64,000 bases of DNA from Oscillospiraceae bacterium (GCA_015063725.1 SVTP01000003.1:23194-87193); one strand, 5' to 3'. Shown: positions 18,507 to 35,812, counted from the first letter of the stretch. Program-made: numbers and translations. Notes: generated by a model from the letters alone, not told the origin.

Positions 18507-19319
18507 TTACATTTTATAAATTCTCACAGCATTCTCGGAAAGAATCATTGTGCGTTCTTCGTCGGTCAATTTGAGCTTCATAAAAGTTTCAAGCTCGACC
18601 TCGGGAGACCACATCGGAAAATCGCTACCGAACATGACGCGCTCCGCACCGTAGCGGTGAATCAGTCTCTCGCCAAGGGCGAGATCGTTCCCTGCAAACG
18701 GAAAGGTTGAGGAACAATCGACGTATAGGTTTGGAATATCGCAAAGCTCGCGCGAGGCATCGTCCCACACCGACCATCCGCCAAAATGCGCGCCAATGAC
18801 TGTCAATTTTGGAAACGCTTTGAGCACAGGCAAAAGGCGGTTGGGATTGGAATAATCGTAACGATGGTCACCTGTGTGCATCAGGACAGCAAGCCCTTCA
18901 CTCTCGCACAGTTCATACACGCGCATCATACGAGGGTCATCAATGGCAAACCCTTGAATATCAGGGTGAATTTTGATGCCGTGAAGTCCCAATGCTTTGA
19001 TCTCTGCAATAACGGCATCCTGATCTTCACAATCGGGATGCGCCGCGCCAAGTCCCGTAAAACGGTCGGGCGCCTTTGCCACCTCGGCGGCAATAAAGTG
19101 ATTGATGCTGGAGACCTGCTTGGGCGTGGTTGCCACAGATTGCACCACAAAACGGTCGATGCCAACGCGGTCGCCAATCTCCAAAAGCTCGGCGGCAACG
19201 CCACGGCAGGCGGCGTGGGTGGAATAAAACGCATCCGTCCCCGCAACCGCTCTGTCTACAATCTTTTCGGGATAGATATGACAATGCGCGTCAATAACCT
19301 GAAATTTGTTCTCTATCAT
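18507..19319 (-). CDS. amidohydrolase-2 (PF04909-like) TIM-barrel metal hydrolase/decarboxylase family protein
   Basis: 270 aa with an N-terminal IDAHCHIYP metal motif, HTGD and GSDFP. Confidence 0.75.
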   Translation of the reverse strand: MIENKFQVIDAHCHIYPEKIVDRAVAGTDAFYSTHAACRGVAAELLEIGDRVGIDRFVVQSVATTPKQVSSINHFIAAEVAKAPDRFTGLGAAHPDCEDQDAVIAEIKALGLHGIKIHPDIQGFAIDDPRMMRVYELCESEGLAVLMHTGDHRYDYSNPNRLLPVLKAFPKLTVIGAHFGGWSVWDDASRELCDIPNLYVDCSSTFPFAGNDLALGERLIHRYGAERVMFGSDFPMWSPEVELETFMKLKLTDEERTMILSENAVRIYKM

Positions 19320-19325
19320 TTTGTA

Positions 19326-21833
19326 TCATCCTTTTTTCAGTCCCAGCTTTTCAACGGCATCCTCGCGCATTTTGTACTTGAGGATCTTGCCTGCGGCATT
19401 CATTGGGAACTTGTCAACAAAATCAACGTATCTGGGCACCTTGTGGCGCGCCATACTTGCGGCTACAAAGTCTTTCATCTCCTGCTCGGTCATGCTCTCG
19501 CCATCTTTGAGGATGATACAAGCCATAATTTCCTCACCGTATTTTTCGTCGGGAACGCCGATGACCTGCACGTCGCTGACCTTGGGACAGGTGTAGATAA
19601 ATTCTTCGATCTCTTTGGGATAAATGTTTTCACCGCCGCGAATGATCATATCCTTGAGGCGCCCCGTAATGCGGTAGTTGCCGTCATCATCACGGCAAGC
19701 AAGGTCTCCTGTGTGGAGCCAACCGTCGGCATCAATGGCAGACGCGGTCGCCTGCGGCATTTTGTAATATCCCTTCATAATGTTGTATCCACGCGCCACA
19801 AACTCACCGTTGACACCGTTGGGACAGTCCTCGCCCGTTTCGGGATCGATGATCTTGCACTCAACGTTTGCAAAAACACTGCCTACGGTTTCGGTGCGGA
19901 CCTCCAACGAGTCATAATAGGAGCTCATCGTGCATCCGGGAGAGGCTTCGGTCTGACCGTAAACCGAGACGATCTCTTTCATATTCATAACCTCGGTTGC
20001 CTTTTTCATCAGGTCGGCAGGACAGTTGGAGCCTGCCATAATACCGATGCGCATATAGGAGAAATCGGTTGCGGCAAAGTCGGGATGCTCCATCATTGCA
20101 ATGAACATGGTGGGCACGCCGTTAAAGGCGGTGATGTGCTCGTTGTGCACGCAAGCCAGCGCGGGCTTGGGTGAAAAGTACGGCAGCGGCATCATGGTAG
20201 CGCCGTGCGTCATCGATGCGGTCATTGAAAGAACCATACCAAAGCAGTGGAACATGGGAACTTGGATCATCATGCGGTCAGCGGTGGAAAGGTCCATATG
20301 GTCGCCAATGTATTTGCCGTTGTTGACGACGTTGTAGTGTGTCAGCATAACGCCCTTGGGAAATCCAGTAGTGCCCGAGGTGTATTGCATGTTGCAAACG
20401 TCATCCTTATTGACAGCGGCTGCCATGCGGTAGACCTCGCTGACGGGTACCTGTGCGGCACGCTCAACGGCTTCATTCCAATCCATACATCCCTTTTGTC
20501 TGAAGCCAACGGTAATAACGTTGCGCAAAAACGGCAGGCGCTTGCTATGCAGAGCAGCGCCCGGCTTGAGCCTTGCCAATTCGGGGCAAAGCTCGGCAAT
20601 GATCTTGCCGTAGTGCGTATCCTTGGATCCCTCGGTCAAAATCAGGGTGTGTGTGTCGGATTGCTTGAGCAGATATTCTGCCTCGTGAATTTTATAAGCG
20701 GTATTGACAGTGACAAGCACGGCACCGAGCTTTACGGTTGCCCAAAAAGCAATGTACCATTGCGGCACGTTGGATGCCCAAACGGCGACATGGGAGCCTG
20801 CCTTGACGCCCAGCGCGATCAGGGAGCGCGCAAATTCGTCTACGTCATCGCGGAATTCGCTATACGTGCGCGTATAGTCGAGCGTGGTGTATTTGAAAGC
20901 GTATTGATCGGGAAATTCCTCGACCATGCGGTCAAGCACCTGCGAGAAGGTTGCATCGATCAAGAGATCCTTCTTCCAAACATACTTACCCGTATGTGCG
21001 CGGTTGTAATACAAGGTCTTTTCATTGCGTGAGGGATCGCTGAACTGGCTCATAAAGCCGACAAACTGCGAGAAGATGATCTCCATATCATCAAGCTCCT
21101 CACACCAGGCGGGATCCCAGACAAGGGAGAGGAAGCCGTCATAGTTGACGGAGCGCAAAGCAAGCATCATATCCTTGATAGGCAATTCTCCCTCACCAAG
21201 CAGACAGTATTCAATGCTATCCCCTGCTCTTTTTGCATCGTTGATATGCACGTGGCGAACGTACGCACCAAGATTTTTGATGATCTGCTCGGGACTCTCT
21301 CCTCCCTCAAAATATGCAGCGGAAAGATTCCAAAGAGATGCAAAGTAATCACTGGCAAAGCTATCCAACATCGCGCGTAGCTTTTCGGTCTTTGCAAAAA
21401 GTCCTGCCGTCTCCATCAAAAGCGAAATGCCGCGGCTCTCTGCCTCGGGCAGGAGTTCTGCAATCACTGCCTCTGTGTTGGTAAGTGCACTCTCCTCGTC
21501 CTCTGCGGCATTGGCGCGAATGCGAATGTTGGGGATATGCAAATTGGATGCGATCTCCATGCACTTGCGAATTTCGGCAATGCAGGCATCCTTTTCGTTC
21601 TTGTCAGACGGATTGCAGATGGCATCGATGCACGGAATGCGCAGCTTCTTTTCGTAGAGACGGCGAATGGTGGATGCGGCGGCGTAATTATAGAAGGCAC
21701 CGTCTTTATCAGCAAACAGGCTGTTTTTTATGTTGTGAAGCTCAATGCCCCCAAAGCCCATTGCCGTGGCGATGTCGCAAAAATCTTCAAAGGTGTGGCC
21801 GTGCCAGCCCTTTGTTGAAAAGGAAAATTTCAT
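19326..21833 (-). CDS. fusion protein: xylose-isomerase-like TIM barrel + AMP-forming acyl-CoA ligase
   Basis: 835 aa. The first roughly 270 aa resemble sugar-phosphate isomerase/epimerase TIM barrels (GFGGIELHN, HVHINDA). The remainder is an adenylate-forming ligase (YTSGTTGFPKGVMLTH, YGQTE, TGDLACRDDDGNYRITGRLKDMIIRGGENIYP). Confidence 0.8.
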   Translation of the reverse strand: MKFSFSTKGWHGHTFEDFCDIATAMGFGGIELHNIKNSLFADKDGAFYNYAAASTIRRLYEKKLRIPCIDAICNPSDKNEKDACIAEIRKCMEIASNLHIPNIRIRANAAEDEESALTNTEAVIAELLPEAESRGISLLMETAGLFAKTEKLRAMLDSFASDYFASLWNLSAAYFEGGESPEQIIKNLGAYVRHVHINDAKRAGDSIEYCLLGEGELPIKDMMLALRSVNYDGFLSLVWDPAWCEELDDMEIIFSQFVGFMSQFSDPSRNEKTLYYNRAHTGKYVWKKDLLIDATFSQVLDRMVEEFPDQYAFKYTTLDYTRTYSEFRDDVDEFARSLIALGVKAGSHVAVWASNVPQWYIAFWATVKLGAVLVTVNTAYKIHEAEYLLKQSDTHTLILTEGSKDTHYGKIIAELCPELARLKPGAALHSKRLPFLRNVITVGFRQKGCMDWNEAVERAAQVPVSEVYRMAAAVNKDDVCNMQYTSGTTGFPKGVMLTHYNVVNNGKYIGDHMDLSTADRMMIQVPMFHCFGMVLSMTASMTHGATMMPLPYFSPKPALACVHNEHITAFNGVPTMFIAMMEHPDFAATDFSYMRIGIMAGSNCPADLMKKATEVMNMKEIVSVYGQTEASPGCTMSSYYDSLEVRTETVGSVFANVECKIIDPETGEDCPNGVNGEFVARGYNIMKGYYKMPQATASAIDADGWLHTGDLACRDDDGNYRITGRLKDMIIRGGENIYPKEIEEFIYTCPKVSDVQVIGVPDEKYGEEIMACIILKDGESMTEQEMKDFVAASMARHKVPRYVDFVDKFPMNAAGKILKYKMREDAVEKLGLKKG

Positions 21834-23215
21834 TGCGCGGCCTCCTCGTAAACGATCTTGTTAACGGCGTTGATATAGGCACGGATGCCTGCACCGATGA
21901 TGTCGGTGGAAATACCGTTGCCCGAATAGAGCTTTCCGTCGGAGCGAAGCTTAACGAGCGCCGAGCCCATAGCTTCTGTACCCTCGGTAACGGCTTGGAT
22001 CTGGAAATCATCCAACTCATAACGGTAGCCGATGATCTGCTCGATGGCAGAAAATGCGGCATCAATTGGACCGTCGCCAATGCAAATGCCCGTCAGATCC
22101 TTTCCGTCCTTGCGCAGCGTGATCTGCGCACTTGTGGAAATGATATTGCCGCTGTTGACAACGTAATTGACAAGCTCATACGTGGGCGGAACCTGCAATG
22201 CCACGCTTGCAACGATGGCTTCCAGCTCCTTTGCCCCTACCTTCTTTTTGGCGGCTACGCGTAAAAATTCTTGATAAACAAGAGATTTATCTTCTTCGGA
22301 AAGATCGTACCCCAGCTTTGCAACGGCTGTAGCTACGGTGTCCTTATCGTCGTTGGCATCCAGATGGATGGGTTCGTCGTCGGGAGTGGCAGAAGTGATG
22401 CTTCCCTTTGCGCTCTTGACGTTATCCAGCACCCAGCCGATCTGCTTTACCGTACGATGAAGCTCGGTATAGCGGATATCGGAATAAAAGCCGTAGCGGT
22501 TGCCGCAATTTTTGACCATGGCGGCAAAGCTCTCAAGCGAAACACCTGCCTCGCCTACGGCTGTTTTAACACCCGATGCGCCTGCGCGGATCGCCATAAT
22601 AGCATTCGCACAAGCCATACTGTTTTGATTGGAACAACGAACGTTGACGGGAACGTTGATATTCTCGGCAATCTTCTTCACGAAATCTGCAAAATCATCG
22701 GGGAGCATTTCTCCTGCATCATCGCAAAGAGTAACCTCACAAGCACCTGCCGCAATAGCGGTGTTGATAACAGAAGCAAGGAATGCAGGCTCTGCACGGG
22801 AAGCATCCAAAGCGCAAAACTCAACCGAGGAGCACTGCTCTTTTGCAAAGGTGACGATCTTCTCTACCCATGCAATCATCTTATCGGGCTTTTTGTGGCA
22901 AACGTACTCCATGCTGACAGGAGAGGTGGGCAGCTCAATGCGAATGCGCGGATAGAGTGCGGTAGAAAGTGCCGCTTTTGCATTTTCGACGCTCTCAACC
23001 GTCATACCTGCCGCCACGGAGATGGTGCTCTTTTTAACAAAGGTCGAAATCGTTTTGATCAGCAGTGTATCAATGCGCACGTTTTGAATTTCGGGCAGCT
23101 CGATAATGTCCCCATCCAGCTTTTCAAGCTGACGGGCGATATCGATCTTTTCTTTAAAGCTAAAGGCATTGTCTGCTCGGCAAAGCGTAGCGTCTGCAAT
23201 TCTGATTCTTTTCAT
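21830..23215 (-). CDS. 2-isopropylmalate synthase homolog with degenerate catalytic motifs
   Basis: 461 aa with a DRE-TIM-like N-terminal half and a LeuA-type C-terminal regulatory domain (GDGPIDAAFSAIEQI, IQAVTEGTEAMG, GISTDIIGAGIRAY). The TLRDGEQ motif is replaced by TLCRADN, and HxH(D) by RCSNQ. Confidence 0.8.
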   Translation of the reverse strand: MKRIRIADATLCRADNAFSFKEKIDIARQLEKLDGDIIELPEIQNVRIDTLLIKTISTFVKKSTISVAAGMTVESVENAKAALSTALYPRIRIELPTSPVSMEYVCHKKPDKMIAWVEKIVTFAKEQCSSVEFCALDASRAEPAFLASVINTAIAAGACEVTLCDDAGEMLPDDFADFVKKIAENINVPVNVRCSNQNSMACANAIMAIRAGASGVKTAVGEAGVSLESFAAMVKNCGNRYGFYSDIRYTELHRTVKQIGWVLDNVKSAKGSITSATPDDEPIHLDANDDKDTVATAVAKLGYDLSEEDKSLVYQEFLRVAAKKKVGAKELEAIVASVALQVPPTYELVNYVVNSGNIISTSAQITLRKDGKDLTGICIGDGPIDAAFSAIEQIIGYRYELDDFQIQAVTEGTEAMGSALVKLRSDGKLYSGNGISTDIIGAGIRAYINAVNKIVYEEAAQ

Positions 23216-23255: not shown

Positions 23256-23530
23256 TCAAAAGTCCCCGAGACGGATGCATAATCCACCTCGGGGACGAAT
23301 GTTCTCATTCGCGGTACCACCCCGGTTACCGAACAAGTCGGTCACCTCAAAGGCTCAGGCAAGCCCTATGCTATGATAACGGTGCATGCCGTGACCGCTT
23401 ACTAAAGGTTCTGCGGTCCTGCTCCGGAACGAGACTTTCTTCTCTTTCGGTAACGGCTCACACCAAGCGCCGCCTCTCTGAAACCGATATGGGAGAAAAA
23501 ATAATTCCTTCAACGCATTTCAAAAAAATA
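23256..23530 (-). promoter_or_regulatory. T-box riboswitch leader, specifier read as CUC (Leu)
   Basis: On the minus strand: a K-turn (GUUGAA/GGA), an AGAGAG bulge, a CGGC-GCUUGGUGUGA-GCCG distal loop, the T-box core CCGGGGUGGUACCGCG (23310-23325) and a terminator GUCCCCGAG...CUCGGGGAC+UUUU (23258-23297). The specifier CUC-G lies at 23430-23433. Confidence 0.8.
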
Positions 23531-23536
23531 TGCTTT

Positions 23537-23565
23537 ATTATACCATTTACAATGGTATTTGTCAA
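23537..23565 (-). promoter_or_regulatory. sigma-A promoter of the Leu T-box unit
   Basis: TTGACA (23560-23565), a 17-nt spacer, then TATAAT (23537-23542). Confidence 0.6.
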
Positions 23566-23587: not shown

Positions 23588-24658
23588 TTATTTTTCAATG
23601 GGATATGTCCAGCCGTAAGTGTCCTCGATTTTGCCCCATTGAATGCCTGTCAAGGTATCGTACAGATGTTGGGTAACGGTACCGATCTTGCCACCGTTAA
23701 CGGGATATTGTACGCCCTTGTAGCAAAGCTCGCCAATGGGAGAGACAACTGCAGCAGTTCCGCAGCCCCATGCTTCCTCAAGTGTGCCATTTTCAAGCGC
23801 TTCGGAAAGCTCACCGATAGAGAGCAGACGCTCGCTGACCTTGTAGCCCTCGCCCTTGAGAACCTCGATGCAGGATTTGCGCGTGATACCGGGCAGAATG
23901 GAGCCGGTCAGAGCGGGCGTGACGATCTCGCCGTTGATCTTGAACATAACGTTCATAGCGCCGACTTCTTCGATATACTTGCGTTCCACACCGTCAAGCC
24001 ACAAAACCTGAGAGTATCCCTTTTGTGCGGCTCTCTCACCGGCTCTGTTACTTGCGGCATAGTTACCGCCGCATTTTGCATAACCTGTACCGCCTCTGAC
24101 AGCACGAACATCCTCGTCCTCGATCATGATGCGAACGGGATTGATGCCCTCTTTGTAGTAGCTTCCTACGGGAGAAGCGATGATAACAAAGGTTGCGTTG
24201 TGAACTGCGTGAACACCCAAGGTCTCATCGTTTCCAAACAGGAACGGACGCAGATAAAGCGAGGTTCCGGGAGCGGACGGTGTCCAGTCCTGCTCCATTT
24301 CCACAAAGGTCAAAAGAGCCTGAAGCATATCTTCCTCGGGCATTTGCGGCAGGCACAAACGCTCGGCAGAGTTGTTCATGCGGCGAATGTTCTCCAAAGG
24401 GCGGAAGAGCTGAACCTTGCCGTCGGCACGGCGGTAAGCTTTCAGTCCTTCAAAGATCTCGGAGCCATAGTGCAGAACGGTGGATGCAGGATGGAGAGAA
24501 ATGTTTGCAAAAGGCACGATGCGCGCATTGTGCCAACCCATCTCGTGGGAATAGTCCGCCATAAACATATGGTCGGTAAAGATCTTGCCAAAGCCAAGCG
24601 TAGAAGGATCCGGCTTTGCCTTGGGAGCATCACATTTTGTAATGGAAATATTGAGCAT
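23588..24658 (-). CDS. ilvE: branched-chain amino acid aminotransferase
   Basis: 356 aa with FGKIFTDHMF, ASTVLHYGSEIFEGLKAYR, the PLP-Lys context, GTGYAKCGGNYA and PGITRKS. Confidence 0.9.
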   Translation of the reverse strand: MLNISITKCDAPKAKPDPSTLGFGKIFTDHMFMADYSHEMGWHNARIVPFANISLHPASTVLHYGSEIFEGLKAYRRADGKVQLFRPLENIRRMNNSAERLCLPQMPEEDMLQALLTFVEMEQDWTPSAPGTSLYLRPFLFGNDETLGVHAVHNATFVIIASPVGSYYKEGINPVRIMIEDEDVRAVRGGTGYAKCGGNYAASNRAGERAAQKGYSQVLWLDGVERKYIEEVGAMNVMFKINGEIVTPALTGSILPGITRKSCIEVLKGEGYKVSERLLSIGELSEALENGTLEEAWGCGTAAVVSPIGELCYKGVQYPVNGGKIGTVTQHLYDTLTGIQWGKIEDTYGWTYPIEK

Positions 24659-24685: not shown

Positions 24686-25219
24686 TCAGTTTTCGGCACC
24701 GATGCGCATAGCGCCAAGATTGATCTCCAGCATGTCGGCACGCTTTGCGGAGATAACTTTTTTCAGTGCAGCGGTGATGTTTTCTTCGTTATAGTCGCCA
24801 ATTTCCTTGAGAACCTTGCCAACAATGATCATATTTGCCAGCGTGGGAGTTCCGTTATCGCTTGCCAGCTGCGTTGCAGGAATGTAGAATACCTGAACGT
24901 CATCGCGTGCGACCTTGCGCTCAATGAGCGTGGAGTCCGCAAAGATCATACCGCCGGGCACAACGGTCGATTCAAACTTATCAAGAGAAGGCAGATTCAT
25001 GGCGATCAGGATATCGGGATTGGAAACGATAGGAGAACCAACAGGCTCATCGCTCACGATGACACTGCAGCTTGCAGTACCGCCGCGCATTTCGGGACCG
25101 TAGGACGGAAGCCAGCTGACCTGTTTATCTTCCATCAAGCCCTTGTATGCAATAAATTTACCGGCAAACAGAATGCCCTGTCCGCCAAAGCCGGAAAACA
25201 GCATTTGCTTTGTACTCAT
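24686..25219 (-). CDS. 2-oxoacid:ferredoxin oxidoreductase, gamma subunit
   Basis: 177 aa with [14 protein letters not shown], typical of the gamma subunit. It has an ATGA overlap with the beta gene. Confidence 0.85.
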
Positions 25220-25974
25220 TTTGCCGATTCCTCCTTTGCACTTCTATCCTTATAGACACCCAAGGGATAGTACGGAATCATCTTTTCGTCAATCCATTGG
25301 AGAGCCTTCTGAGGTGTCATACCCCAGTTGGTGGGACAGGTGGAAAGGACCTCTACCAGAGAAAAGCCCTTGCCATCAATTTGGTTTTGGAATGCCTTTT
25401 TGATCGCCTTTTTGGCGTTATTTACGTTCTTTACATTGTTGACCGTTACGCGAGCAAGATACTCGGGGCCTTCCAATTCAGAGAGCATTTCGCACACGCG
25501 GATCGGGAAACCGCAGTGATTGGTGTCACGTCCGTAAGGAGAGGTCTGTGTTACCTGTCCGGGCAGCGACGTAGGTGCCATCTGACCGCCGGTCATGCCG
25601 TAAATTGCGTTGTTGATAAAGATAATGGTGATGTTTTCGTTTCTTGCAGCGGCATGAACAGTCTCCGCCATACCGATGGATGCGAGGTCACCGTCACCCT
25701 GATAGGTGAACACGATGTGCTCCTCGGGATTTGCGCGTTTTACACCGGTGGCAACTGCAGGGGCTCTGCCGTGTGCCGCCTCGATCATATCACAGTTAAA
25801 ATAGTTATAAGCCATAACCGAGCAACCAACGGGAGCAATACCGATGGTTCTGCCTTCGATACCAAGCTCGTCAATGACCTCGGCTACCAGACGGTGAATG
25901 ATGCCGTGGGTGCAGCCGGGACAATAGTGAAAAGGTGCATCGGTCAGGGCGTGGGGCTTTTTGAATACAACCAT
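25216..25974 (-). CDS. 2-oxoacid:ferredoxin oxidoreductase, beta (TPP-binding) subunit
   Basis: MVVFKKPHALTDAPFHYCPGCTHG... and GDGDLASIG (the TPP/Mg motif). I chose the ATG at 25974, which overlaps the alpha stop as TAATG. Confidence 0.85.
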   Translation of the reverse strand: MVVFKKPHALTDAPFHYCPGCTHGIIHRLVAEVIDELGIEGRTIGIAPVGCSVMAYNYFNCDMIEAAHGRAPAVATGVKRANPEEHIVFTYQGDGDLASIGMAETVHAAARNENITIIFINNAIYGMTGGQMAPTSLPGQVTQTSPYGRDTNHCGFPIRVCEMLSELEGPEYLARVTVNNVKNVNNAKKAIKKAFQNQIDGKGFSLVEVLSTCPTNWGMTPQKALQWIDEKMIPYYPLGVYKDRSAKEESAK

Positions 25975-27050
25975 TAGTTTTCTCCTCCTTTCGCGGCTTT
26001 TTTGATCGCTTCGAGTACTTGCTCGGGGGACGGAATCATACCGCCTGCACGATTGCAAAGCGTTACAGGCTTTTTGCATTCGGTTGCAAGGCGTACATCC
26101 TCAATCATCTGTCCCATAGAAAGCTCAACAGAAATAAAGCTGTTGACCTTATCCGCAGCGCGACGGAAAACTTCCTTCGGGAAGGGCCAGAGCGTGATGG
26201 GACGGATCATGCCGACCTTAATTCCCTGTTTTCTTGCCTCGTTGATGGCGTTTTTGGATACGCGAGCGGCAATACCGAAGGCGGCAATGCAGATCTCGGC
26301 ATCGTCCATCATGTATTCCTCGTACAGAACCTCGTTTTCCTCGATGTAGCGGTAACGCTCATAGCGAGCAAAGTTGAACTGCTCAAGCTCCTCGGGAACG
26401 AGAGAGAGCGAATTGACAATGTTGTGGGGACGTTGCATTTTGGTGCCTGTGATTGCCCAAGGCTTTTCGGGAGCGGGCTTGACAACAAGATCATCAAGTG
26501 CCACGGGCTCCATCATCTGTCCCATGGTGCCGTCTGCCAAAATCATAGCGGTCATGCGGTAGGTGTCGGCAAGCTCAAAGCCCTTAACGGTCAGCTCTGC
26601 CATCTCTTGAACAGATGCAGGTGCGAGAACGATCATACGGAAGTCACCGTGACCGCCTGCCTTGGTTGCTTGGAAATAGTCGGATTGGCTGGGTTGAATG
26701 CCGCCAAGACCGGGACCGCCGCGTTGAACGTTGACAACGAGTGCAGGCAGATCAGAGCCTGCAAGGTAAGAAAGACCTTCGCTCTTGAGTGCGATTCCGG
26801 GACTGGAGGAAGAGGTCATAACGCGGTATCCCGTAGATGCTACGCCATAAACCATATTGATAGCCGCGATCTCGCTTTCGGCTTGCAGGAAGGTACCGCC
26901 AATCTTGGGCATCTTTTTTGCCATATAAGCCGCGATCTCGGTTTGAGGGGTGATGGGATAGCCAAAATAATGTCTGCAGCCTGCGTGAATTGCAGCCTCG
27001 GCAATGGCTTCGTTGCCTTTCATCAATACTTTATCTGCCATTTTGATCAC
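25974..27050 (-). CDS. 2-oxoacid:ferredoxin oxidoreductase, alpha subunit
   Basis: 358 aa with MKGNEAIAEAAIHAGCRHYFGYPITPQTEI and QAESEIAAINM. Confidence 0.85.
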   Translation of the reverse strand: MIKMADKVLMKGNEAIAEAAIHAGCRHYFGYPITPQTEIAAYMAKKMPKIGGTFLQAESEIAAINMVYGVASTGYRVMTSSSSPGIALKSEGLSYLAGSDLPALVVNVQRGGPGLGGIQPSQSDYFQATKAGGHGDFRMIVLAPASVQEMAELTVKGFELADTYRMTAMILADGTMGQMMEPVALDDLVVKPAPEKPWAITGTKMQRPHNIVNSLSLVPEELEQFNFARYERYRYIEENEVLYEEYMMDDAEICIAAFGIAARVSKNAINEARKQGIKVGMIRPITLWPFPKEVFRRAADKVNSFISVELSMGQMIEDVRLATECKKPVTLCNRAGGMIPSPEQVLEAIKKAAKGGEN

Positions 27051-27253
27051 CTCTCAACAGTAATAATGCAGTCGGGACACATCGTTGCACAGAAAGCACA
27101 GCCGATGCAAGCATCGGGGTTTTCTGCCTCTACGGGGTGATGTCCCTTTTTGTTGATCTTATCGGGTGCCAGACGAAGCACCTTTTTGGGGCAAGCGTCT
27201 ACACACAGACCGCAGCCCTTGCATTTATCGGTCAAAAACGTTAATTTTGCCAT
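27047..27253 (-). CDS. 2-oxoacid:ferredoxin oxidoreductase, delta (2x[4Fe-4S] ferredoxin) subunit
   Basis: 68 aa, MAKLTFLTDKCKGCGLCVDACP...CIGCAFCATMCP. It has an AAGGAG RBS and its stop has an ATGA overlap with the alpha start. Confidence 0.8.
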   Translation of the reverse strand: MAKLTFLTDKCKGCGLCVDACPKKVLRLAPDKINKKGHHPVEAENPDACIGCAFCATMCPDCIITVER

Positions 27254-27287: not shown

Positions 27288-27950
27288 TTACTGAATCTTT
27301 TTTTGCAGTTCAAGTGGGAAAAGATCAGGAATCTTCCCTTCCAGCTCACACTGCAGTTTTTGGTCTGCCGTTGTCATAACGACGGGCAAGCCCGACATAG
27401 CCGCCACCTCGTTGGCATAGGATACCGACCGAAGCACGTCCTCGGCAGTGGTCTCCACTCCGAGATTGGAGTTGTTGACCAATGCGGTAAATCGCATACC
27501 GCACGCGGTCTCGATCTCACGCATTACCTCAAGGGTGGATATCGCATCGCGCGTTAAGGGGCGGTAGCAGTTGATCACCATCAGCATTTCGTAATCATTC
27601 TCCGCCAAAATAGCGGGAGCGAGTCTGCCAAGCACCAAAGCACCGCGGTCGTCACCGCCCACGTCGATGATGGCGCGCATGCGGCGGTCATCGGTCAGGG
27701 CGTAGAGGTCGGGCGGAAGTGCGGGAATATCGACGTTGCTGTTTGCATAGTTGGAGCAAATGAGTCGAATGCCCGCCTCTTCCAGCTCGGCGGCACTGTC
27801 CTTGGAACGAAAATAAGGATTGACGATGTCAAGGTCGGCAAGCGTTACGGTTGGGTATTCCCTCTTGATGGCTTGTGCCAGATTGACGGCAATGTTGGTT
27901 TTGCCGCTGCCGTAATGTCCGCACAAGAGCAAAACGCGTTTGTTCATCAT
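27288..27950 (-). CDS. P-loop NTPase of unknown role (MinD/CooC/GPN-like layout)
   Basis: 220 aa with a deviant Walker A (LLCGHYGSGKTN), LADLDIVNPYF and a Walker-B-like IIDVGGDD. Its start overlaps the ligase stop as ATGA. Confidence 0.6.
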   Translation of the reverse strand: MMNKRVLLLCGHYGSGKTNIAVNLAQAIKREYPTVTLADLDIVNPYFRSKDSAAELEEAGIRLICSNYANSNVDIPALPPDLYALTDDRRMRAIIDVGGDDRGALVLGRLAPAILAENDYEMLMVINCYRPLTRDAISTLEVMREIETACGMRFTALVNNSNLGVETTAEDVLRSVSYANEVAAMSGLPVVMTTADQKLQCELEGKIPDLFPLELQKKIQ

Positions 27951-30235
27951 AGCTTGTTCCTCTGAATTTTTCCGCTTGTTGTCTTGGGCAATTCATCGCA
28001 GAAGACCACAAGACGGGGGTATTTGTAGGGAGCGGTGTGCTCCTTAACGTAGGTTTGAATTTCTTTTTTGAGTTCCTCTGTGGGTTCTGTTCCCTTGGTA
28101 AGAACAATGGATGCCTTGACGATCTGTCCTCTTACCTCATCGGGAGCGGCGGAAACGCCGCACTCAAGAACGTAAGGCAGCTCCATAATAACGCTCTCAA
28201 TTTCAAAGGGACCAATGCGGTAGCCCGAGGACTTGATGACGTCATCGGCACGTCCTACGTACCAATAGAAGCCGTCCTCATCGCGCCAAGCAACGTCGCC
28301 GGTGTGGTAGTAACCGTCGTGCCAGACCTCTGCGGTCTTTTCCGCGTCGCGATAGTAGCCTGTAAAGAGTCCGCAAGGCGCTCCGTTTTTGACGTTGACA
28401 ACGATCTCACCGCTCTCACCAACAGAAACGGGATTGCCGTCGGCGTCCACAAGAGAAACATCATAAATCGGTGCGGGCTTACCCATAGAGCCGATCTTAT
28501 GCGGTGCACCGATCATATTACCGATGATCATGGTGCTCTCGGTCTGTCCAAAGCCTTCGAGAATTTGCAGTCCCGTTGCCTTTTCAAACTGGCGGTAGAC
28601 CTCGGGGTTGAGTGCTTCGCCCGCCGTTGTCATGTGCTTGACGGAAGAAAGATCGTATTTGGAAATGTCTTGCTTGATCATCATGCGCAGCATTGTGGGC
28701 GGCGCGCAGAAGGTTGTGATGTTGTATTTTGCAAACATCGGCAAGATCTCGGCAGCATCAAAGCGGTCAAAGTCGTAAACAAAGGTTGCCGCCTCACACA
28801 GCCACTGACCGTAGAGCTTTCCCCACATTGCCTTTGCCCAGCCCGTATCCGAGATGGTAAAATGTAAGCCGTTGGGATCGGCATTGTGCCAATATTTTGC
28901 GGTATGGAAGTGTCCGAGTGCGTACTTGTAATTGTGCGCCGCGATCTTGGGGTATCCTGTGGTTCCCGAAGTAAAGAACATCAGCATCAGATCGTCACCG
29001 CCGGGTGCATCCTCGCCTCGGTTGTAGTGCGAGCTGTAAAGCGTGTATTCTTCATCAAAGCTTCTCCAGCCCTCTCTTGTGCCGCCAACGATCAAGAAAT
29101 TCTTGAGCTCGGGACAGGTTTTTGCTGCGAGTTCGATTTGATGTGCGGTGTTGCCATCGGCAGTACAAAGAACCGTATTGATGCCTGCGGCTTGGAAGCG
29201 GTATTCAAAGTCATGCTCCTGCAACTGATTGGGAGCGGGGATGGCAATAGCACCAAGCTTGTTCAAGCCAAGCATAGCAAACCAGAACTGATAGTGGCGC
29301 TTGAGAACGAGCATGACGCGATCGCCCTTTTTGATGCCCAGCGACTTGAAATAGTTGGCACACTGTGCCGATGCTTTTTTGATATCCTTAAAGGTAAATC
29401 TTCGCTCGGTCTTATCCCCTGCAATGTGCAGCATTGCCAGCTTTTGCGGTTCTTTATCGGCAAGAGCATCCACAAGATCGAATGCAAAGTTAAAGTTTTC
29501 GATATTTTTAAATTGGATGGATGTAGGAGTTCCGTTTTCGTCTTCTTCAACGTCAATAAACTGTTGATAGATGCGCTCCTTGGTATCCTTTTGAATGGTG
29601 GCAGTTCCCCGCACGAGCTTTGCGGGCGTCAATTCGGGAATGGGCTCACCCGTAGGATTGAGCACGATCGCATAGAATTCGCAATCCTGACCGTCAACGG
29701 CAATCATACCGTGCGGAGCGCTACTGTCATAATAGATGCTGTCGCCTGCGCGCAGAACCTCTTTGTGCGAGCCGACCTGCACCATCAGGCTACCCGAGAT
29801 GACGATGTCGATCTCCTGACCTGCGTGTGTAGTCAGCTCGATATCCTTGTGTAGTGCTTCTTCGTTGTATTCACTGCGAACAAGCAAGGGCTCGGCAATT
29901 CGGTTTTGGAACGCGTATGCCAGGTTGTAGTAGGTCATGCCGTGTGCCTGCTCAATACGCTGTCCCGCGCCGTTTCGAGTGACCGTGTAGGACTTGAGCT
30001 TGGGGCTGACACCGTCGATGATGTCGGTAACGTTGACGCCAAAAGCCAATGCACAACGGTAGATAAACGCAAAGTTGAGGTCACTCTGCCCGTTTTCGCA
30101 CGCCAAGTATTCTTCAATCGTAACGTCGGTTTTTGCCGCCATCTCCTCGGGAGTATAGCGTGTAATTTCGCGCAACTCTCGAATACGCTCTGCCATCTCT
30201 CGGATCTTGAAATCCAATCCGCTCATTTGTTTCAT
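27947..30235 (-). CDS. HTH(XRE)-cupin fused to an AMP-forming short/medium-chain acyl-CoA synthetase (paralog B)
   Basis: 762 aa from the ATG at 30235, with a GGAGAG RBS. The N-terminus has an HTH (ITRYTPEEMAAKTDVTIEEY) and a cupin (HAGQEIDIVISG...HGM). The ligase part carries FFTSGTTGYPK, GFGQTE, TGDVAWRDEDGFYWYVGRADDVIKSSGYRIGPFE and SGKIQR. The ORF-track start at 30328 lies inside the T-box core and is rejected. Confidence 0.85.
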   Translation of the reverse strand: MKQMSGLDFKIREMAERIRELREITRYTPEEMAAKTDVTIEEYLACENGQSDLNFAFIYRCALAFGVNVTDIIDGVSPKLKSYTVTRNGAGQRIEQAHGMTYYNLAYAFQNRIAEPLLVRSEYNEEALHKDIELTTHAGQEIDIVISGSLMVQVGSHKEVLRAGDSIYYDSSAPHGMIAVDGQDCEFYAIVLNPTGEPIPELTPAKLVRGTATIQKDTKERIYQQFIDVEEDENGTPTSIQFKNIENFNFAFDLVDALADKEPQKLAMLHIAGDKTERRFTFKDIKKASAQCANYFKSLGIKKGDRVMLVLKRHYQFWFAMLGLNKLGAIAIPAPNQLQEHDFEYRFQAAGINTVLCTADGNTAHQIELAAKTCPELKNFLIVGGTREGWRSFDEEYTLYSSHYNRGEDAPGGDDLMLMFFTSGTTGYPKIAAHNYKYALGHFHTAKYWHNADPNGLHFTISDTGWAKAMWGKLYGQWLCEAATFVYDFDRFDAAEILPMFAKYNITTFCAPPTMLRMMIKQDISKYDLSSVKHMTTAGEALNPEVYRQFEKATGLQILEGFGQTESTMIIGNMIGAPHKIGSMGKPAPIYDVSLVDADGNPVSVGESGEIVVNVKNGAPCGLFTGYYRDAEKTAEVWHDGYYHTGDVAWRDEDGFYWYVGRADDVIKSSGYRIGPFEIESVIMELPYVLECGVSAAPDEVRGQIVKASIVLTKGTEPTEELKKEIQTYVKEHTAPYKYPRLVVFCDELPKTTSGKIQRNKL

Positions 30236-30263
30236 GTTTTCTCTCCGTTTCTTGCCCGGGAAC

Positions 30264-30540
30264 CAAAAATGCACTCGTCCCAAGCGAAAATAACCTTGAG
30301 ACGAGTGCAATAACACCCGCGGTACCACTCAAATTGCGACAAAGTCGCCACTCTTGGAGCCTGACAGCTCCTATGCATTAACGCAGCAATCACGGAAGGG
30401 TTCTACTGGAGCGTGCTCGTTCTTCCCTTCGGCTCGGAAGCTACAAATGCCGGTAAAGTCCAATGGCTTGCACCAAACGCCATCTCTCTGCAAAGACCTG
30501 TTTCCAACATCCTCTTCGTCAGTGCCTTTCTAAATTATAA
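30264..30540 (-). promoter_or_regulatory. T-box riboswitch leader, specifier read as GUA (Val)
   Basis: Stem I has a K-turn (CUGAC/CGA), a GAAG/CUUC lower helix, an AGAGAG bulge and an AUGGC-GUUUGGUGCAA-GCCAU distal loop. The T-box core is AAUUUGAGUGGUACCGCGGG (30316-30335) and the terminator is GCACUCGUC...GACGAGUGC+AUUUUUG (30264-30308). The specifier GUA-G lies at 30441-30444. Confidence 0.8.
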
Positions 30541-30543
30541 AGT

Positions 30544-30572
30544 ATTGTATCACACTTTTGGTTATTTGTCAA
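30544..30572 (-). promoter_or_regulatory. sigma-A promoter of the Val T-box operon
   Basis: TTGACA (30567-30572), a 17-nt spacer, then TACAAT (30544-30549). Confidence 0.6.
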
Positions 30573-30611
30573 TAGATTTTATAATATTTCCAATATTATA
30601 TATTGGCAATA

Positions 30612-32879
30612 TCAAAGTTTATTTCTCTGAATCTTGCCGCTGATGGTTTTGGGCAGTTCATCGCGGAAAACAACCACGCGGGGGTATTTGTAGGGCGCGG
30701 TATGCTCTTTGACATAAGTTTGAATCTCTTTTTTGAGCTCTTCGGTGGGTTCTGTTCCCTTTGTAAGAACAATAGACGCCTTGACAATCTGTCCTCTGAC
30801 CTCGTCGGGCATAGCGGATACACCGCACTCGAGAACGTAAGGCAGCTCCATAATAACGCTTTCGATCTCAAAGGGACCGATGCGGTAGCCGGAGGACTTG
30901 ATAACGTCATCTACGCGACCAACGTACCAATAGAAACCGTCCTCATCGCGCCAAGCGGTGTCACCCGTATGATACATACCGTCATGCCAAACCTCGGCGG
31001 TCTTTTCTTCGTTCTTGTAGTATCCCGCAAAGAGTCCGCAAGGAACCTTTTTGTCGGTACGGACAACGATCTCACCAACCTCACCAACCGCTACGGGATT
31101 GCCGTCGGGATCAACGATATCAACGTCATAAAGCGGAATAGGCTTACCCATGGAGCCGAGCTTGTGCGTGCCGCCAATCAGATTTGCAATGGTGAGCGTC
31201 AGCTCGGTCTGCCCAAAGCCTTCCATGATCTGTAGTCCCGTTGCCTTTTCAAACTGACGGTAAACCTCGGGGTTGAGTGCTTCGCCCGCGGTGGTCATAT
31301 GCTTGATGGAAGAAAGATCGTATTTGGAGATGTCTTCCTTGATCATCATGCGCAGCATCGTGGGGGGCGCACAGAAGGTGGTGATATTGTATTTTGCAAA
31401 CATGGGAAGGATATCCGCTGCCGAGAAGCGGTCAAAGTCATAGGTAAAGACCGCGCCCTCACACAGCCACTGACCGTAGAGCTTGCCCCAAAGTGCCTTG
31501 CCCCATCCTGTTTCGGAAATGGTAAAGTGGAGACTGCCGTCACTGACGCCGTGCCAATGCTTGGCGGTAACAAAGTGACCGAGCGGATATTTGTAGGTAT
31601 GCGCTGCAATTTTGGGATACCCTGTGGTTCCCGATGTAAAGAACATCAACATCAGATCGTCACCACAGGGGGTGTCATCAGTACGATAGAAGTGCGTGCT
31701 GTAAAGACCGAATTCCTCGTCAAAGTCTCTCCAGCCGTCGCGCTTGCCGCCAACGAGAACCTTGGTGGTGAGCACCGGGCACTTCTGTTGTGCAAGGTCA
31801 ACCTGATGGGCAACATCACCGTCGGCTGTGCAGATGATCGCACTAACGTCGGCTGCTTCAAAGCGGTATTCAAAGTCATGCGCCTGCAGCTGATTGGTCG
31901 CGGGAATAACGATAGCACCCAGCTTGTGCAAGCCGAGAATTGCGAACCAGAACTGATAGTGGCGCTTGAGAACGAGCATGACACGGTCGCCCTTTTTGAT
32001 GCCCATGGATTTGAAATAGTTTGCGCACTGTGCCGAGGCGCGTTTCATATCGTTAAAGGTAAAGCGACGCTCGGTCTTATCGTTTGCAATGTGGATCATG
32101 GCAAGCTTGTCGGGTTCCTTTTGTGCAATGGCATCCACAACATCAAAGCCAAAGTTGAATTTGTCCTCATCGTGGAAATCGATGGACTGCAACAGACCGT
32201 TTTCGTCCTCGACTGTGGAGATAAAACGGTCGCAGACCAACTCTCTCTTTGGGGTACGCATGGGGATCAGTGTATCTCTGATCACGTCCTCTTTTTCGTT
32301 CTCACCGGGCAAAACAACTGCCACAAATAGGCAATCCTCGCCATCGATTGCGATCATACCGTGAGGGGTGGAGCTGTTGTAATAAATACTGTCACCCTCA
32401 CCGAGATACTCGACGTTATCGCCAACCTGCACCTTGAGCTTGCCTTTGAGTACCATGTCAAACTCCTGCCCGGAGTGCTTTGTCAGGTGGATGGGACGGT
32501 TTTGCAGATCGGGGTTATATTCGTAGCGAACCCAATAGGGCTCAGCCAGCTTTTTGCGGAACATGGGGGCTAAGTTGGAAATCTCAATGCCATCCTCTTT
32601 TGCCGTTTGCTGTCCCTGACCACGGCGCGTGACCGTGTAGGACGAAAGATGCGCACTGCGGCCTTCCAAAAGGTCGGTCATGCCAATGCCAAACGCCTGC
32701 GCACATTTATAAATAAAGGTAAACGGAAAATCCAACTCACCGCTTTCATACCTGCAGTACTCGGCAACCGATACCTCGGTCTTCTCTGCCATGGTTTCAA
32801 CGCTGAAATCAAAAATTTCACGCATTTCGCGAATTCGAAGCGCAACCTCCTGCAAAGTGTTAGATGATAAGTTCGACAT
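30612..32879 (-). CDS. HTH(XRE)-cupin fused to an AMP-forming short/medium-chain acyl-CoA synthetase (paralog A)
   Basis: 755 aa from the ATG at 32879, with an AGGAGG RBS. It has the same architecture as 27947-30235, and the ligase half is nearly identical (FFTSGTTGYPKIAAH, ILPMFAKYNITTFCAPPTMLRMMIK, GYRIGPFEIESVIMELPYVLECGVSA). The ORF-track start at 32963 lies inside the T-box and is rejected. Confidence 0.85.
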   Translation of the reverse strand: MSNLSSNTLQEVALRIREMREIFDFSVETMAEKTEVSVAEYCRYESGELDFPFTFIYKCAQAFGIGMTDLLEGRSAHLSSYTVTRRGQGQQTAKEDGIEISNLAPMFRKKLAEPYWVRYEYNPDLQNRPIHLTKHSGQEFDMVLKGKLKVQVGDNVEYLGEGDSIYYNSSTPHGMIAIDGEDCLFVAVVLPGENEKEDVIRDTLIPMRTPKRELVCDRFISTVEDENGLLQSIDFHDEDKFNFGFDVVDAIAQKEPDKLAMIHIANDKTERRFTFNDMKRASAQCANYFKSMGIKKGDRVMLVLKRHYQFWFAILGLHKLGAIVIPATNQLQAHDFEYRFEAADVSAIICTADGDVAHQVDLAQQKCPVLTTKVLVGGKRDGWRDFDEEFGLYSTHFYRTDDTPCGDDLMLMFFTSGTTGYPKIAAHTYKYPLGHFVTAKHWHGVSDGSLHFTISETGWGKALWGKLYGQWLCEGAVFTYDFDRFSAADILPMFAKYNITTFCAPPTMLRMMIKEDISKYDLSSIKHMTTAGEALNPEVYRQFEKATGLQIMEGFGQTELTLTIANLIGGTHKLGSMGKPIPLYDVDIVDPDGNPVAVGEVGEIVVRTDKKVPCGLFAGYYKNEEKTAEVWHDGMYHTGDTAWRDEDGFYWYVGRVDDVIKSSGYRIGPFEIESVIMELPYVLECGVSAMPDEVRGQIVKASIVLTKGTEPTEELKKEIQTYVKEHTAPYKYPRVVVFRDELPKTISGKIQRNKL

Positions 32880-32895
32880 TTTGGTTTCCTCCTTT

Positions 32896-33170
32896 TCAAA
32901 AAATAAAACACCCGTCTCAATTCTTTGAGACGGGTGTGAAAATACACTCGCGGTACCACTCAAATTGCGACATTGTCGCCACTCTTGGAATCAAACAATT
33001 CCTATGCCTTGACGCAGCAATCACGGGAAATTCTACTTGAACACAGTCTTTCGAACATCCGGCTCGGAAGTGATGGGTCTTGAGTAACTTTGTCATCGGT
33101 TCACACCAACACCGACTCTCTGCGGGCATCCTTATTCGACCTTCTTCGTCATCGCCTTTTTCAAATTACG
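32896..33170 (-). promoter_or_regulatory. T-box riboswitch leader, specifier read as AUC (Ile)
   Basis: Stem I reads GGC-GAUGAC-GAAG...CUUC-CGA-GCC, with an AGAGAG bulge and a GUCGGU-GUUGGUGUGA-ACCGAU distal loop. The T-box core is AAUUUGAGUGGUACCGCG (32948-32965) and the terminator is ACACCCGUCUC...GAGACGGGUGU+UUUAUUUUUU (32896-32937). The specifier AUC-A lies at 33071-33074. Confidence 0.8.
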
Positions 33171-33173
33171 TGT

Positions 33174-33202
33174 AGTATACCACACAAAAAAGTGTTTGTC
33201 AA
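33174..33202 (-). promoter_or_regulatory. sigma-A promoter of the Ile T-box unit
   Basis: TTGACA (33197-33202), a 17-nt spacer, then TATACT (33174-33179). Confidence 0.6.
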
Positions 33203-33230: not shown

Positions 33231-33962
33231 TCAATCGCAGTTTTCCCAGTTGTGGTAAACGTCCATAACGTCGTCATCCTCTTCGAGCTTTTCAATCAGA
33301 AGATTCATAAATTTGATGTCATCTTCGCTCTCAAGAGTAACGGACGTGGAAGCCTGCTTGGTCTTGTCGGCAGAGAGAATCTCATAGCCTGCGGCTCTGA
33401 GATCTTCCTGAATGTTGTAAACGTCATCGGGCTCGGTGGTGATGATGAAAACGTCACCCTCTGCCTTGAAATCTGCTGCGCCTGCCTCAAGTGCTTGCTC
33501 CATCAGTTTATCCTCGTCAACGTCGCCGTCCTCGTTGTTGATAACGATCTCGCCAACGTCGGTGAAGAGGTATCCAACGCAACCTGTCTGACCCATGTTG
33601 CCGTGGTATTTGGAGAAGTAGGAACGCACGTTACCCGCGGTACGGTTGCGGTTGTCGGTGGTAGCGGTTACCAGGACGGCAACGCCTGCGGGACCGTAGC
33701 CCTCGTAGGAAACCTCTTCGTAGCTTTCACCGCCGCCGCCAAGTGCTTTTTTGATGCAACGCTCGATGTTATCGTTGGGAACGTTGTTTGCCTTTGCCTT
33801 TTGGATCAGGTCGCGCAGCTTGGAGTTGTTGTTGGGATCTCCGCCGCCCTCTTTTACGGCGATGGTGATCTCTTTGCCGATCTTGGTAAAGATCTTACCC
33901 TTTGCGGCATCGGTTTTTTCTTTTTTGTGCTTGATATTCGCCCATTTGCTATGTCCGGACAT
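33231..33962 (-). CDS. yebC: YebC/PmpR-family transcriptional regulator
   Basis: MSGHSKWANIKHKKEKTDAAKGKIFTK...NNVPNDNIERCIKKA. Confidence 0.9.
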   Translation of the reverse strand: MSGHSKWANIKHKKEKTDAAKGKIFTKIGKEITIAVKEGGGDPNNNSKLRDLIQKAKANNVPNDNIERCIKKALGGGGESYEEVSYEGYGPAGVAVLVTATTDNRNRTAGNVRSYFSKYHGNMGQTGCVGYLFTDVGEIVINNEDGDVDEDKLMEQALEAGAADFKAEGDVFIITTEPDDVYNIQEDLRAAGYEILSADKTKQASTSVTLESEDDIKFMNLLIEKLEEDDDVMDVYHNWENCD

Positions 33963-34012
33963 AATGATTCATCCTTTCGATATATAGAATATTTTATTGA
34001 AACCAAAATTGA

Positions 34013-35746: not shown

Positions 35747-35812
35747 AGGTGATCCTTTCAATTTATAATCAACTGTAATGTAATGCGATAGTCTAAAAAT
35801 TAAGGGGGTGCT

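Follow-up and report, generated by a model that had tools for sequence, protein, structure and literature searches.

Paired T-box-controlled acyl-CoA ligase cassettes with isoleucine and valine specifiers in a predicted isoacid operon of an Oscillospiraceae bacterium

Promoters, leaders and ligase genes of the two cassettes

The DNA analyzed here is a window of 64,000 nucleotides from an Oscillospiraceae bacterium (GCA_015063725.1, SVTP01000003.1:23194-87193). It carries two adjacent cassettes, each of which consists of a promoter, a T-box leader and a gene for an acyl-coenzyme A (acyl-CoA) ligase with an N-terminal helix-turn-helix (HTH)-cupin module. All features of interest are located on the minus strand and all coordinates refer to the window, whereby the gene order was read from the list of open reading frames together with Pfam and NCBIfam scans. 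The first cassette starts with promoter P1 (33174..33202; TTGACA-17-TATACT with a TG extension, 11/12 matches) and T-box leader 1 (32908..33161), which has the isoleucine (Ile) specifier AUC at 33074-33072, the T-box sequence UGGUACCGCG at 32958-32949 and a terminator hairpin at 32937-32908 that is followed by a U-tract. The leader precedes ligA (30612..32879), whose product of 755 amino acids is composed of a predicted XRE-like HTH, a Cupin_2, an AMP-binding and an AMP-binding_C domain and is predicted to be a 2-methylbutyrate-CoA ligase. The second cassette comprises promoter P2 (30544..30572; TTGACA-17-TACAAT with a TG extension), T-box leader 2 (30271..30531) with the valine (Val) specifier GUA at 30444-30442, UGGUACCGCG at 30327-30318 and a terminator hairpin at 30308-30271 followed by AUUUUUGG, as well as ligB (27947..30235), which encodes a predicted isobutyrate-CoA ligase of 762 amino acids with the same architecture as LigA. 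Further downstream, promoter P3 (23565-23537) and leader 3 together span 23262..23565, with a leucine (Leu) specifier CUC at 23433-23431 and a terminator at 23296-23262. P1, P2, and P3 are the three best sigma-70 matches in a 10-kb stretch (11-12 of 12 positions, all TG-extended) and each lies about 30 nucleotides upstream of a T-box leader; most orthologous loci have a promoter at the position equivalent to P1 and at that equivalent to P2. The cassette boundaries given in a preliminary description of this DNA, 33202 and 30572, turned out to be the -35 hexamers of the strong promoters P1 and P2. There is no terminator between ligA and P2, so that transcripts from P1 must pass both leaders. No tRNA genes were found within the window.

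In a permissive scan, leader 1 matched the Rfam T-box model RF00230 at 33161-32923 (89.2 bits, E 4e-19) and leader 2 at 30531-30294 (85.8 bits, E 3e-18). Because these scores are just under the gathering threshold of 93 bits, which is a curation cut-off and not a structural feature, neither of them appears in a default Rfam scan, where leader 3 (122.5 bits) is the sole T-box reported. The consensus fold of 70 aligned orthologous leaders contains 51 predicted pairs, 33 of which are backed by compensatory changes. In this alignment the AGAGA bulge (AG bulge), the GGTG distal loop and the terminator are conserved, and AAUUUGAGUGGUACCGCG is invariant. The terminator hairpins of leaders 1 and 2 have folding z-scores of -4.5 and -4.2 compared to shuffled controls. 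As read from the sequence, the T-box segments UUGAG and GCG find their complements, CUCAA and CGU, in the 5' arm of the terminator, which would be the usual competition between antiterminator and terminator. The position of the specifier fits the usual rule of codon, one base and closing helix, and AUC, GUA, and CUC are typical specifiers for Ile, Val, and Leu, respectively. The mechanics of T-boxes are textbook knowledge. Like the transcriptional T-boxes of the Bacillus subtilis ileS, valS, and leuS leaders (RF00230), the leaders described here have a specifier codon in Stem I, an AG bulge (AGAGA) and distal-loop motifs, and they share with B. subtilis-type T-boxes the invariant UGGUACCGCG as part of an antiterminator in competition with an intrinsic terminator. 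They differ from classical T-boxes in that the base after the codon is often a C and that two leaders occur in series in one transcription unit. Furthermore, their targets are acyl-CoA synthetases and an operon for IlvE and a 2-oxoisovalerate:ferredoxin oxidoreductase (VOR) instead of an aminoacyl-tRNA synthetase, a classical ilv/leu gene or a transporter.

Paralogy, specifier codons and age of the duplication

A global alignment of the two cassettes (33230-30612 against 30611-27947) yielded 1838 identical positions out of 2608, corresponding to 70% nucleotide identity, and an alignment of the LigA and LigB proteins over 762 columns (E = 0) showed 69% identity. The identity is distributed as a mosaic: it amounts to about 55% in the HTH-cupin part, falls to 25-45% in the linker and reaches 80-93% in much of the 3' half of the ligase. 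This bears out the preliminary description, which had recognized two paralogous cassettes of promoter, T-box and HTH-cupin-ligase with similar C-terminal ligase halves and more diverged HTH-cupin halves. The coding strings it had compared are present at 28160 and 30825 of the plus strand, where 61/66 positions match, and its leader strings at 30318-30357 and 32949-32988. Leaders 1 and 2 are 71% identical to each other, whereby the 3' half is nearly identical and the codon and the upper Stem I differ, whereas only about 50% of positions match between either of them and leader 3, compared to 43% (maximum 52%) for the shuffled control. Thus, the regulatory RNA was duplicated along with the gene and not recruited twice.

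The dN/dS analysis that had been suggested along with the alignments (Nei-Gojobori) gave about 1.4 synonymous (dS) and 0.23 nonsynonymous (dN) substitutions per site for ligA and ligB overall. dS is saturated over the HTH-cupin part, still amounts to 0.5-1.2 where the proteins are 93-100% identical, and is about 1 in the conserved C-terminus. Such a high dS despite identical protein sequence indicates that the identical runs mainly reflect purifying selection on an old duplicate. In the C-terminal ligase part, the identity between ligA and ligB was higher within genomes (0.865) than between genomes (0.833); this excess was seen in 46 of 51 genomes, and the value for the window is 0.926. The HTH-cupin module did not show such an excess (0.482 versus 0.477), and thus some gene conversion homogenizes the 3' part of the ligase. 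The sequences therefore bear signs of mild gene conversion, which would have been a contributor only, as the Gly/Ala difference in the ligase (see below) and the N-terminal differences were never erased. Recent duplication or gene conversion was rejected as the cause of the identical runs, because dS is about 1 even in the C-terminus and the within-genome excess is slight. Although misassembly can produce tandem repeats, we give practically no credence to a recent local duplication or an assembly artifact of this genome, a reading that is already refuted by the dS, by an amino acid identity of only 69% and by the recurrence of the two-gene arrangement in dozens of independent assemblies.

For comparison with relatives, one genome per GTDB species was scanned, which revealed more than 592 relatives of ligA, and the best 80 loci were analyzed. 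These originate from gut, fecal or rumen metagenome-assembled genomes (MAGs) of Acutalibacteraceae, Ruminococcaceae, Oscillospiraceae, Christensenellaceae, and unclassified Clostridia. Leaders were identified with nhmmer profiles built from the leaders of the window, and each leader was then linked to its downstream gene. Almost every ligase gene in the 80 loci is preceded by a leader. The specifier was the Ile codon AUC in all 69 leaders of ligA orthologues, a Val codon in all 53 leaders of ligB orthologues (46 GUA, 7 GUC) and a Leu codon in all 25 leaders of LeuA-like genes (19 CUC, 6 CUG). The difference between AUC and GUA noted in the preliminary description was located at the triplets given above and recurs in the relatives. 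It might be argued that the triplets are mis-assigned, or that both leaders sense the same tRNA and the duplication merely added dosage, since the specifier loop is not fully canonical and the base following the triplet varies. However, across the 122 ligA and ligB leaders the neighboring bases vary and only the in-frame triplet is conserved within each class, with synonymous variation only, and the triplet obeys the codon-base-helix rule. We regard this explanation as very improbable. Alternative specifier frames (UGU, UAG and others) were rejected as well, because the -1 and +1 frames are not conserved and only GUN is.

In a neighbor-joining tree of 130 full-length proteins, all 51 LigB sequences form one clade that excludes the 79 LigA sequences, which places a single duplication before these families diverged. 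Every informative locus of the 80 shows the order Ile-then-Val and the same codon classes, and the synteny ligA-ligB-ATPase-ferredoxin-VorB-VorA-VorC-IlvE is conserved across MAGs of Acutalibacteraceae, Ruminococcaceae, Oscillospiraceae, and Christensenellaceae. Judged by these sequence comparisons, the duplication is ancient and not local to this genome. The dating by comparative genomics thereby supports, as the core reading, the earlier proposal of a duplication followed by a specifier change between branched-chain amino acids. Some loci deviate in their arrangement. In L011, L024, L027, and L051, ligA and ligB abut without an intervening leader, and in the latter three the abutting pair is located directly downstream of Leu-cassette genes. 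A single ligA-type ligase lies ahead of the ATPase and VOR genes in L034, L037, L052, and L075; in L037, L052, and L075, the search for leaders revealed an Ile T-box in front of this gene. An extra gene is inserted between ligA and the Val T-box in three further loci (L040:12287-13237, L062:12440-13891, and L026:3333-5024). The L040 insert encodes a stand-alone xylose-isomerase-like TIM barrel with the fold that is also found in the ligase fusion of the Leu cassette, and the inserts of L062 and L026 are different.

Ligase relatives, operon context and a proposed route for isoacids

The ligase domain shows AMP-binding and AMP-binding_C matches in Pfam with E-values of 1e-65 and 3e-21, and the core adenylation motifs FTSGTTGYPK, GFGQTE, YHTGD, and PKTxSGKIxR are intact in LigA and LigB. 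The best PDB match of the domain is 3ETC, Macs from Methanosarcina acetivorans (E 5e-185). Macs prefers 2-methylbutyrate, and for the acyl substrate Trp259 is a critical residue of this enzyme (PMC10455477). The whole ligase domain can be aligned to 3ETC, and the WGKxxW motif with the acyl-pocket Trp (Macs Trp259) is conserved in both paralogues. Unlike LigA and LigB, Macs is archaeal and has neither an N-terminal HTH-cupin module nor a T-box. The best NCBIfam match is MbcS from Staphylococcus aureus (NF047394), with 440 and 436 bits compared to an equivalog cut-off of 850, which places LigA and LigB by sequence among the relatives of MbcS and not among its equivalogs. MbcS activates 2-methylbutyrate and isobutyrate but performs poorly with isovalerate (PMC10026030). 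The former activities are those proposed here for LigA and LigB; in contrast to these, MbcS is encoded by a single gene for lipid primer supply, lacks an HTH-cupin module and has no reported T-box. By analogy, the two alpha-branched acids would match the pair of Macs/MbcS-type paralogues that follow the Ile and Val leaders, and the poor activity of MbcS on isovalerate fits the presence of a different ligase family under the Leu T-box.

The stop codon of ligB is overlapped by the start of a conserved gene for a P-loop NTPase of 220 amino acids (27288..27950; Walker A GHYGSGKT), which lies beside the ferredoxin and VOR genes. It is followed by genes for a 2x[4Fe-4S] ferredoxin, a VOR delta-like subunit (27047..27250), for VorB, the alpha-type subunit of VOR (25974..27050), for a thiamine pyrophosphate-binding beta subunit (25216..25980) and a gamma subunit (24686..25219) of 2-oxoacid:ferredoxin oxidoreductase, and for the branched-chain amino acid aminotransferase IlvE (23588..24658; NF009897, 473 bits versus a cut-off of 307). 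VorB passes NF005507 with 547 bits versus a cut-off of 399, which together with the adjoining beta, gamma and ferredoxin subunits identifies the enzyme as VOR. This context of VorBAC, IlvE and a Leu T-box, which had not been part of the preliminary description, gives the cassettes a metabolic meaning. We consider it likely that the two ancient paralogous regulatory-plus-enzyme cassettes are the front end of an operon that makes branched-chain amino acids from branched short-chain fatty acids (isoacids). This explanation builds on the observed paralogy, the T-box anatomy, the codon classes with their perfect gene association, the synteny and the enzyme family, and from these we infer the acid preferred by each ligase, the direction of flux and the role of the HTH-cupin module.

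In the proposed scheme, starvation for Ile or Val would increase the level of uncharged tRNA, which would pair with AUC of leader 1 (tRNA-Ile) or GUA of leader 2 (tRNA-Val) and with the UGGU bulge and thereby stabilize the antiterminator, so that RNA polymerase reads on. Leader 1 would release ligA, and leader 2 would release ligB together with the genes for the P-loop ATPase, ferredoxin, VorBAC, and IlvE. LigA and LigB, as acyl-CoA synthetases that form adenosine monophosphate (AMP), would then activate 2-methylbutyrate and isobutyrate, respectively, VOR with reduced ferredoxin would convert the acyl-CoA to the 2-oxo acid by reductive carboxylation, and IlvE would aminate the latter to Ile or Val. 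The third T-box, with its Leu specifier, would control the neighboring cassette with a different ligase. T-boxes normally gate the supply of the cognate amino acid and switch on when it is short. Since AMP-forming ligases run toward acyl-CoA, the anabolic direction is the only one that fits with such a switch, and it also fits the classical physiology of the rumen. That isobutyrate, 2-methylbutyrate, and isovalerate are carboxylated in the rumen to Val, Ile, and Leu, respectively, is described as established physiology in passages of PMC7356843 that cite Allison and co-workers.

Several observations weigh against the isoacid scheme. Leaders 1 and 2 match RF00230 over its full length (model positions 1-219) but fall 4-7 bits short of the gathering score of 93. 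In 27 of 69 leaders the Ile codon is followed by a C instead of the usual purine, and visual inspection of the specifier loop did not reveal a clear canonical AGUA/GAA S-turn. VOR and IlvE are encoded behind the Val leader only, and it is not obvious that a shortage of Ile by itself would induce them, unless there is enough read-through or basal expression or other copies fill in. The scheme assigns no role to the HTH-cupin module and the ATPase. In addition, the predicted preferences of LigA for 2-methylbutyrate and of LigB for isobutyrate derive from the specifier codon, from the relatives and from one Gly/Ala difference, and as Macs and MbcS each take more than one branched acid, the specificities of LigA and LigB may overlap.

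Alternatively, the main use of the acyl-CoA products could be to prime the synthesis of branched-chain membrane fatty acids, as is the case for MbcS in S. aureus, with induction when Ile or Val, and with them the primers derived from oxo acids, are scarce. Acyl-CoA is a branch point, and MbcS, the closest named family, has its role in primer supply. However, VOR and IlvE are co-transcribed with the cassettes and accompany them in near-universal synteny, the locus showed no FabH or lipid genes, and gating the supply of the cognate amino acid is the normal task of a T-box. We therefore consider a main function in lipid primer supply improbable.

In nearly all loci, the gene for the P-loop NTPase separates ligB from the ferredoxin/VOR genes. 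Its product contains the motifs GHYGSGKT, DLDIVNPYFR, and DVGGD and gave only weak CbiA/ParA-like matches. The protein may be a maturation or assembly factor of VOR. A function as a NifH-like, ATP-driven electron donor for VOR was rejected, because the protein has no conserved cysteine and no PDB relative by sequence. Downstream of leader 3, the Leu cassette (18507..23215) comprises genes for a LeuA-like protein (23215-21830), a TIM barrel-ligase fusion (21833-19326) and an Amidohydro_2 protein (19319-18507). The LeuA-like protein has HMGL-like and LeuA_dimer domains and stays below the isopropylmalate synthase equivalog cut-offs. The fusion protein of 835 amino acids combines a xylose-isomerase-like TIM barrel with an acyl-CoA ligase of the PRK12583 type, a family other than Macs/MbcS. 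In many loci the Leu cassette is syntenic with the Ile and Val cassettes, on their upstream side in some and on their downstream side in others. It may be the branch leading from isovalerate to Leu, which would leave the roles of the LeuA-like, TIM-barrel and amidohydrolase parts unexplained. Upstream of the operon, window positions 33231-35761 (minus strand) code for a YebC/TACO1-family protein and an arginyl-tRNA synthetase, a neighborhood that is common only to the closest relatives (L001, L002, and L004).

Divergence of the paralogues and the HTH-cupin module

The 79 LigA and 51 LigB proteins were compared for positions that are conserved within each group and differ between the groups. 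Thirteen such positions were identified, of which 12 are located in residues 44-192, that is in the HTH-cupin module, and only one in the ligase. The latter is Gly460 in 100% of LigA and Ala467 in 100% of LigB within the motif GW[G/A]KA[L/M]WGK, and a semi-fixed Leu/Met difference follows three residues later. Both positions were mapped to 3ETC by sequence, using the SEQRES numbering, which is offset by 23 from the native one and was anchored on Gly459-Tyr460-Lys461. They correspond to Gly255 and Val258 of Macs, which flank Lys256 and the pocket Trp259, whereby the Gly/Ala position lies four residues before the equivalent of Trp259. Like LigA, Macs has a Gly at the discriminating position. On the basis of the alignment, the bulkier Ala in LigB is suggestive, as it is a change in the direction expected for isobutyrate, which is one carbon shorter. 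The ligase domain alone did not separate the paralogues cleanly (38/51), whereas the HTH-cupin module alone gave a clean split with a long branch.

The HTH-cupin module thus seems to be the main carrier of paralogue identity. Cupin_2 is above the Pfam threshold in LigA and LigB. HTH_19 is above it in LigB (35.4 versus 30.2) and below it in LigA (25.8), for which HTH_3 scored 22.2 versus 23. Homologues of the module are named only generically, as AMP-binding protein, cupin domain-containing protein, XRE regulator or 'acetyl-CoA synthetase'. In the LigA cupin (residues 131-173; window positions approximately 32489-32361, minus strand) there is a His135-x3-Glu139...His173 triad, and the three residues are invariant in 60 sequences. 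The triad resembles the 2-His-1-carboxylate facial triad of HppE-type Fe(II) cupins. An AlphaFold model of the N-terminal module has a mean predicted local distance difference test score of 74, with both domains confident and a poor linker. The top Foldseek matches were the Vibrio cholerae HTH_3 regulator 1Y9Q and the Fe(II) enzymes HppE, HEPD, and MPnS, which contain an HTH-like domain and a metal cupin. 1Y9Q and HppE/HEPD share the two-domain plan of HTH and cupin with the module, which in contrast to them is fused to an acyl-CoA ligase, and the structural neighbors thus include enzymes such as HppE as well as a regulator. Taken together, the structural matches of the model and the invariant triad indicate that the module is probably a metal-binding small-molecule site. 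Paralogue-specific residues adjoin the triad in sequence (H131/E, F140/C, Y115/L, and Y119/S in LigA/LigB). Among these, H131/E suggests, as far as can be judged from the sequences, that the Ile and the Val copy differ in a metal-dependent ligand site, and the probable role of the module is that of a ligand sensor that depends on a metal and is specific to each paralogue. Inspection of 124 promoter regions by eye, with no formal motif search run, revealed no common operator for the HTH domain and no common palindrome, and the spacers between the -35 and -10 hexamers are not conserved.

The distribution of the fixed differences bears on the claim of the preliminary description that the RNA sensor and the enzyme had diverged together. 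For the specifier codon of the RNA this holds true, whereas co-divergence of the enzyme is, by sequence, only weakly visible in the catalytic domain. In the sequence-based projection onto Macs, the fixed Gly/Ala and the semi-fixed Leu/Met flank the acyl-pocket Trp, and the other 12 of 13 fixed positions fall into the HTH-cupin module. It might therefore be that subfunctionalization was regulatory only, that is, both ligases take the same alpha-branched acids, and the T-box specifier and the HTH-cupin module diverged, the latter as an allosteric or DNA-binding sensor specific for Ile and Val or for their oxo acids. The concentration of paralogue-specific residues in the module, its clean A/B split in the absence of one for the ligase domain, and the invariant cupin triad with H131/E and F140/C beside it would all be expected in this case, and MbcS handles both 2-methylbutyrate and isobutyrate. 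On the other hand, Gly and Ala are each fixed at 100% beside the pocket Trp, next to the Leu/Met position, and this difference survived the mild gene conversion of the ligase domain, which points to selection on the pocket. We consider purely regulatory divergence rather unlikely, although it deserves to be taken seriously.

It is recognized that T-boxes can evolve by being duplicated together with the gene they regulate and then changing their specificity (Wels et al. 2008, PMC2494555). That study makes no mention of acyl-CoA ligases or ferredoxin oxidoreductases, and the leader paralogy is, with 71%, unusually clear in the present case. A link of T-boxes to acyl-CoA synthetases, VOR or isoacid use was not found in the literature searched, outside of which many subscription papers lie, so that this is absence of evidence only. 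The searched literature likewise contained no description of activating enzymes for isoacids, or of their regulation, in fiber-degrading Clostridia of rumen and gut. Thus, we describe a standard switch on an undescribed target with an uncharacterized fused module, and not a new principle.

It has been known for about 60 years that fiber-degrading Clostridia of the rumen and gut need or profit from isobutyrate, 2-methylbutyrate, and isovalerate, which they use partly by reductive carboxylation to Val, Ile, and Leu. The locus offers testable candidates for each step of this isoacid use, whereby the T-box codon names the amino acid that is served by each branch. As a tentative extension, which is possible rather than probable, the locus might represent the hitherto unassigned genes with which gut and rumen Clostridia assimilate isoacids, and each branch would be specified at two levels. 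The first level would be a T-box that senses the charging of tRNA for Ile, Val, or Leu, and the second a fused metal-cupin/HTH module that recognizes the corresponding amino acid, oxo acid or isoacid and either tunes the ligase or acts as a repressor of transcription. If this were true, T-box codons would be natural substrate labels for the whole HTH-cupin-ligase family. The cassettes are of interest both for rumen and gut physiology and for riboswitch evolution, as they present an unusually clean natural re-specification of a T-box, in which leaders that are 71% identical differ in the codon and the upper Stem I and have been kept apart across bacterial families.

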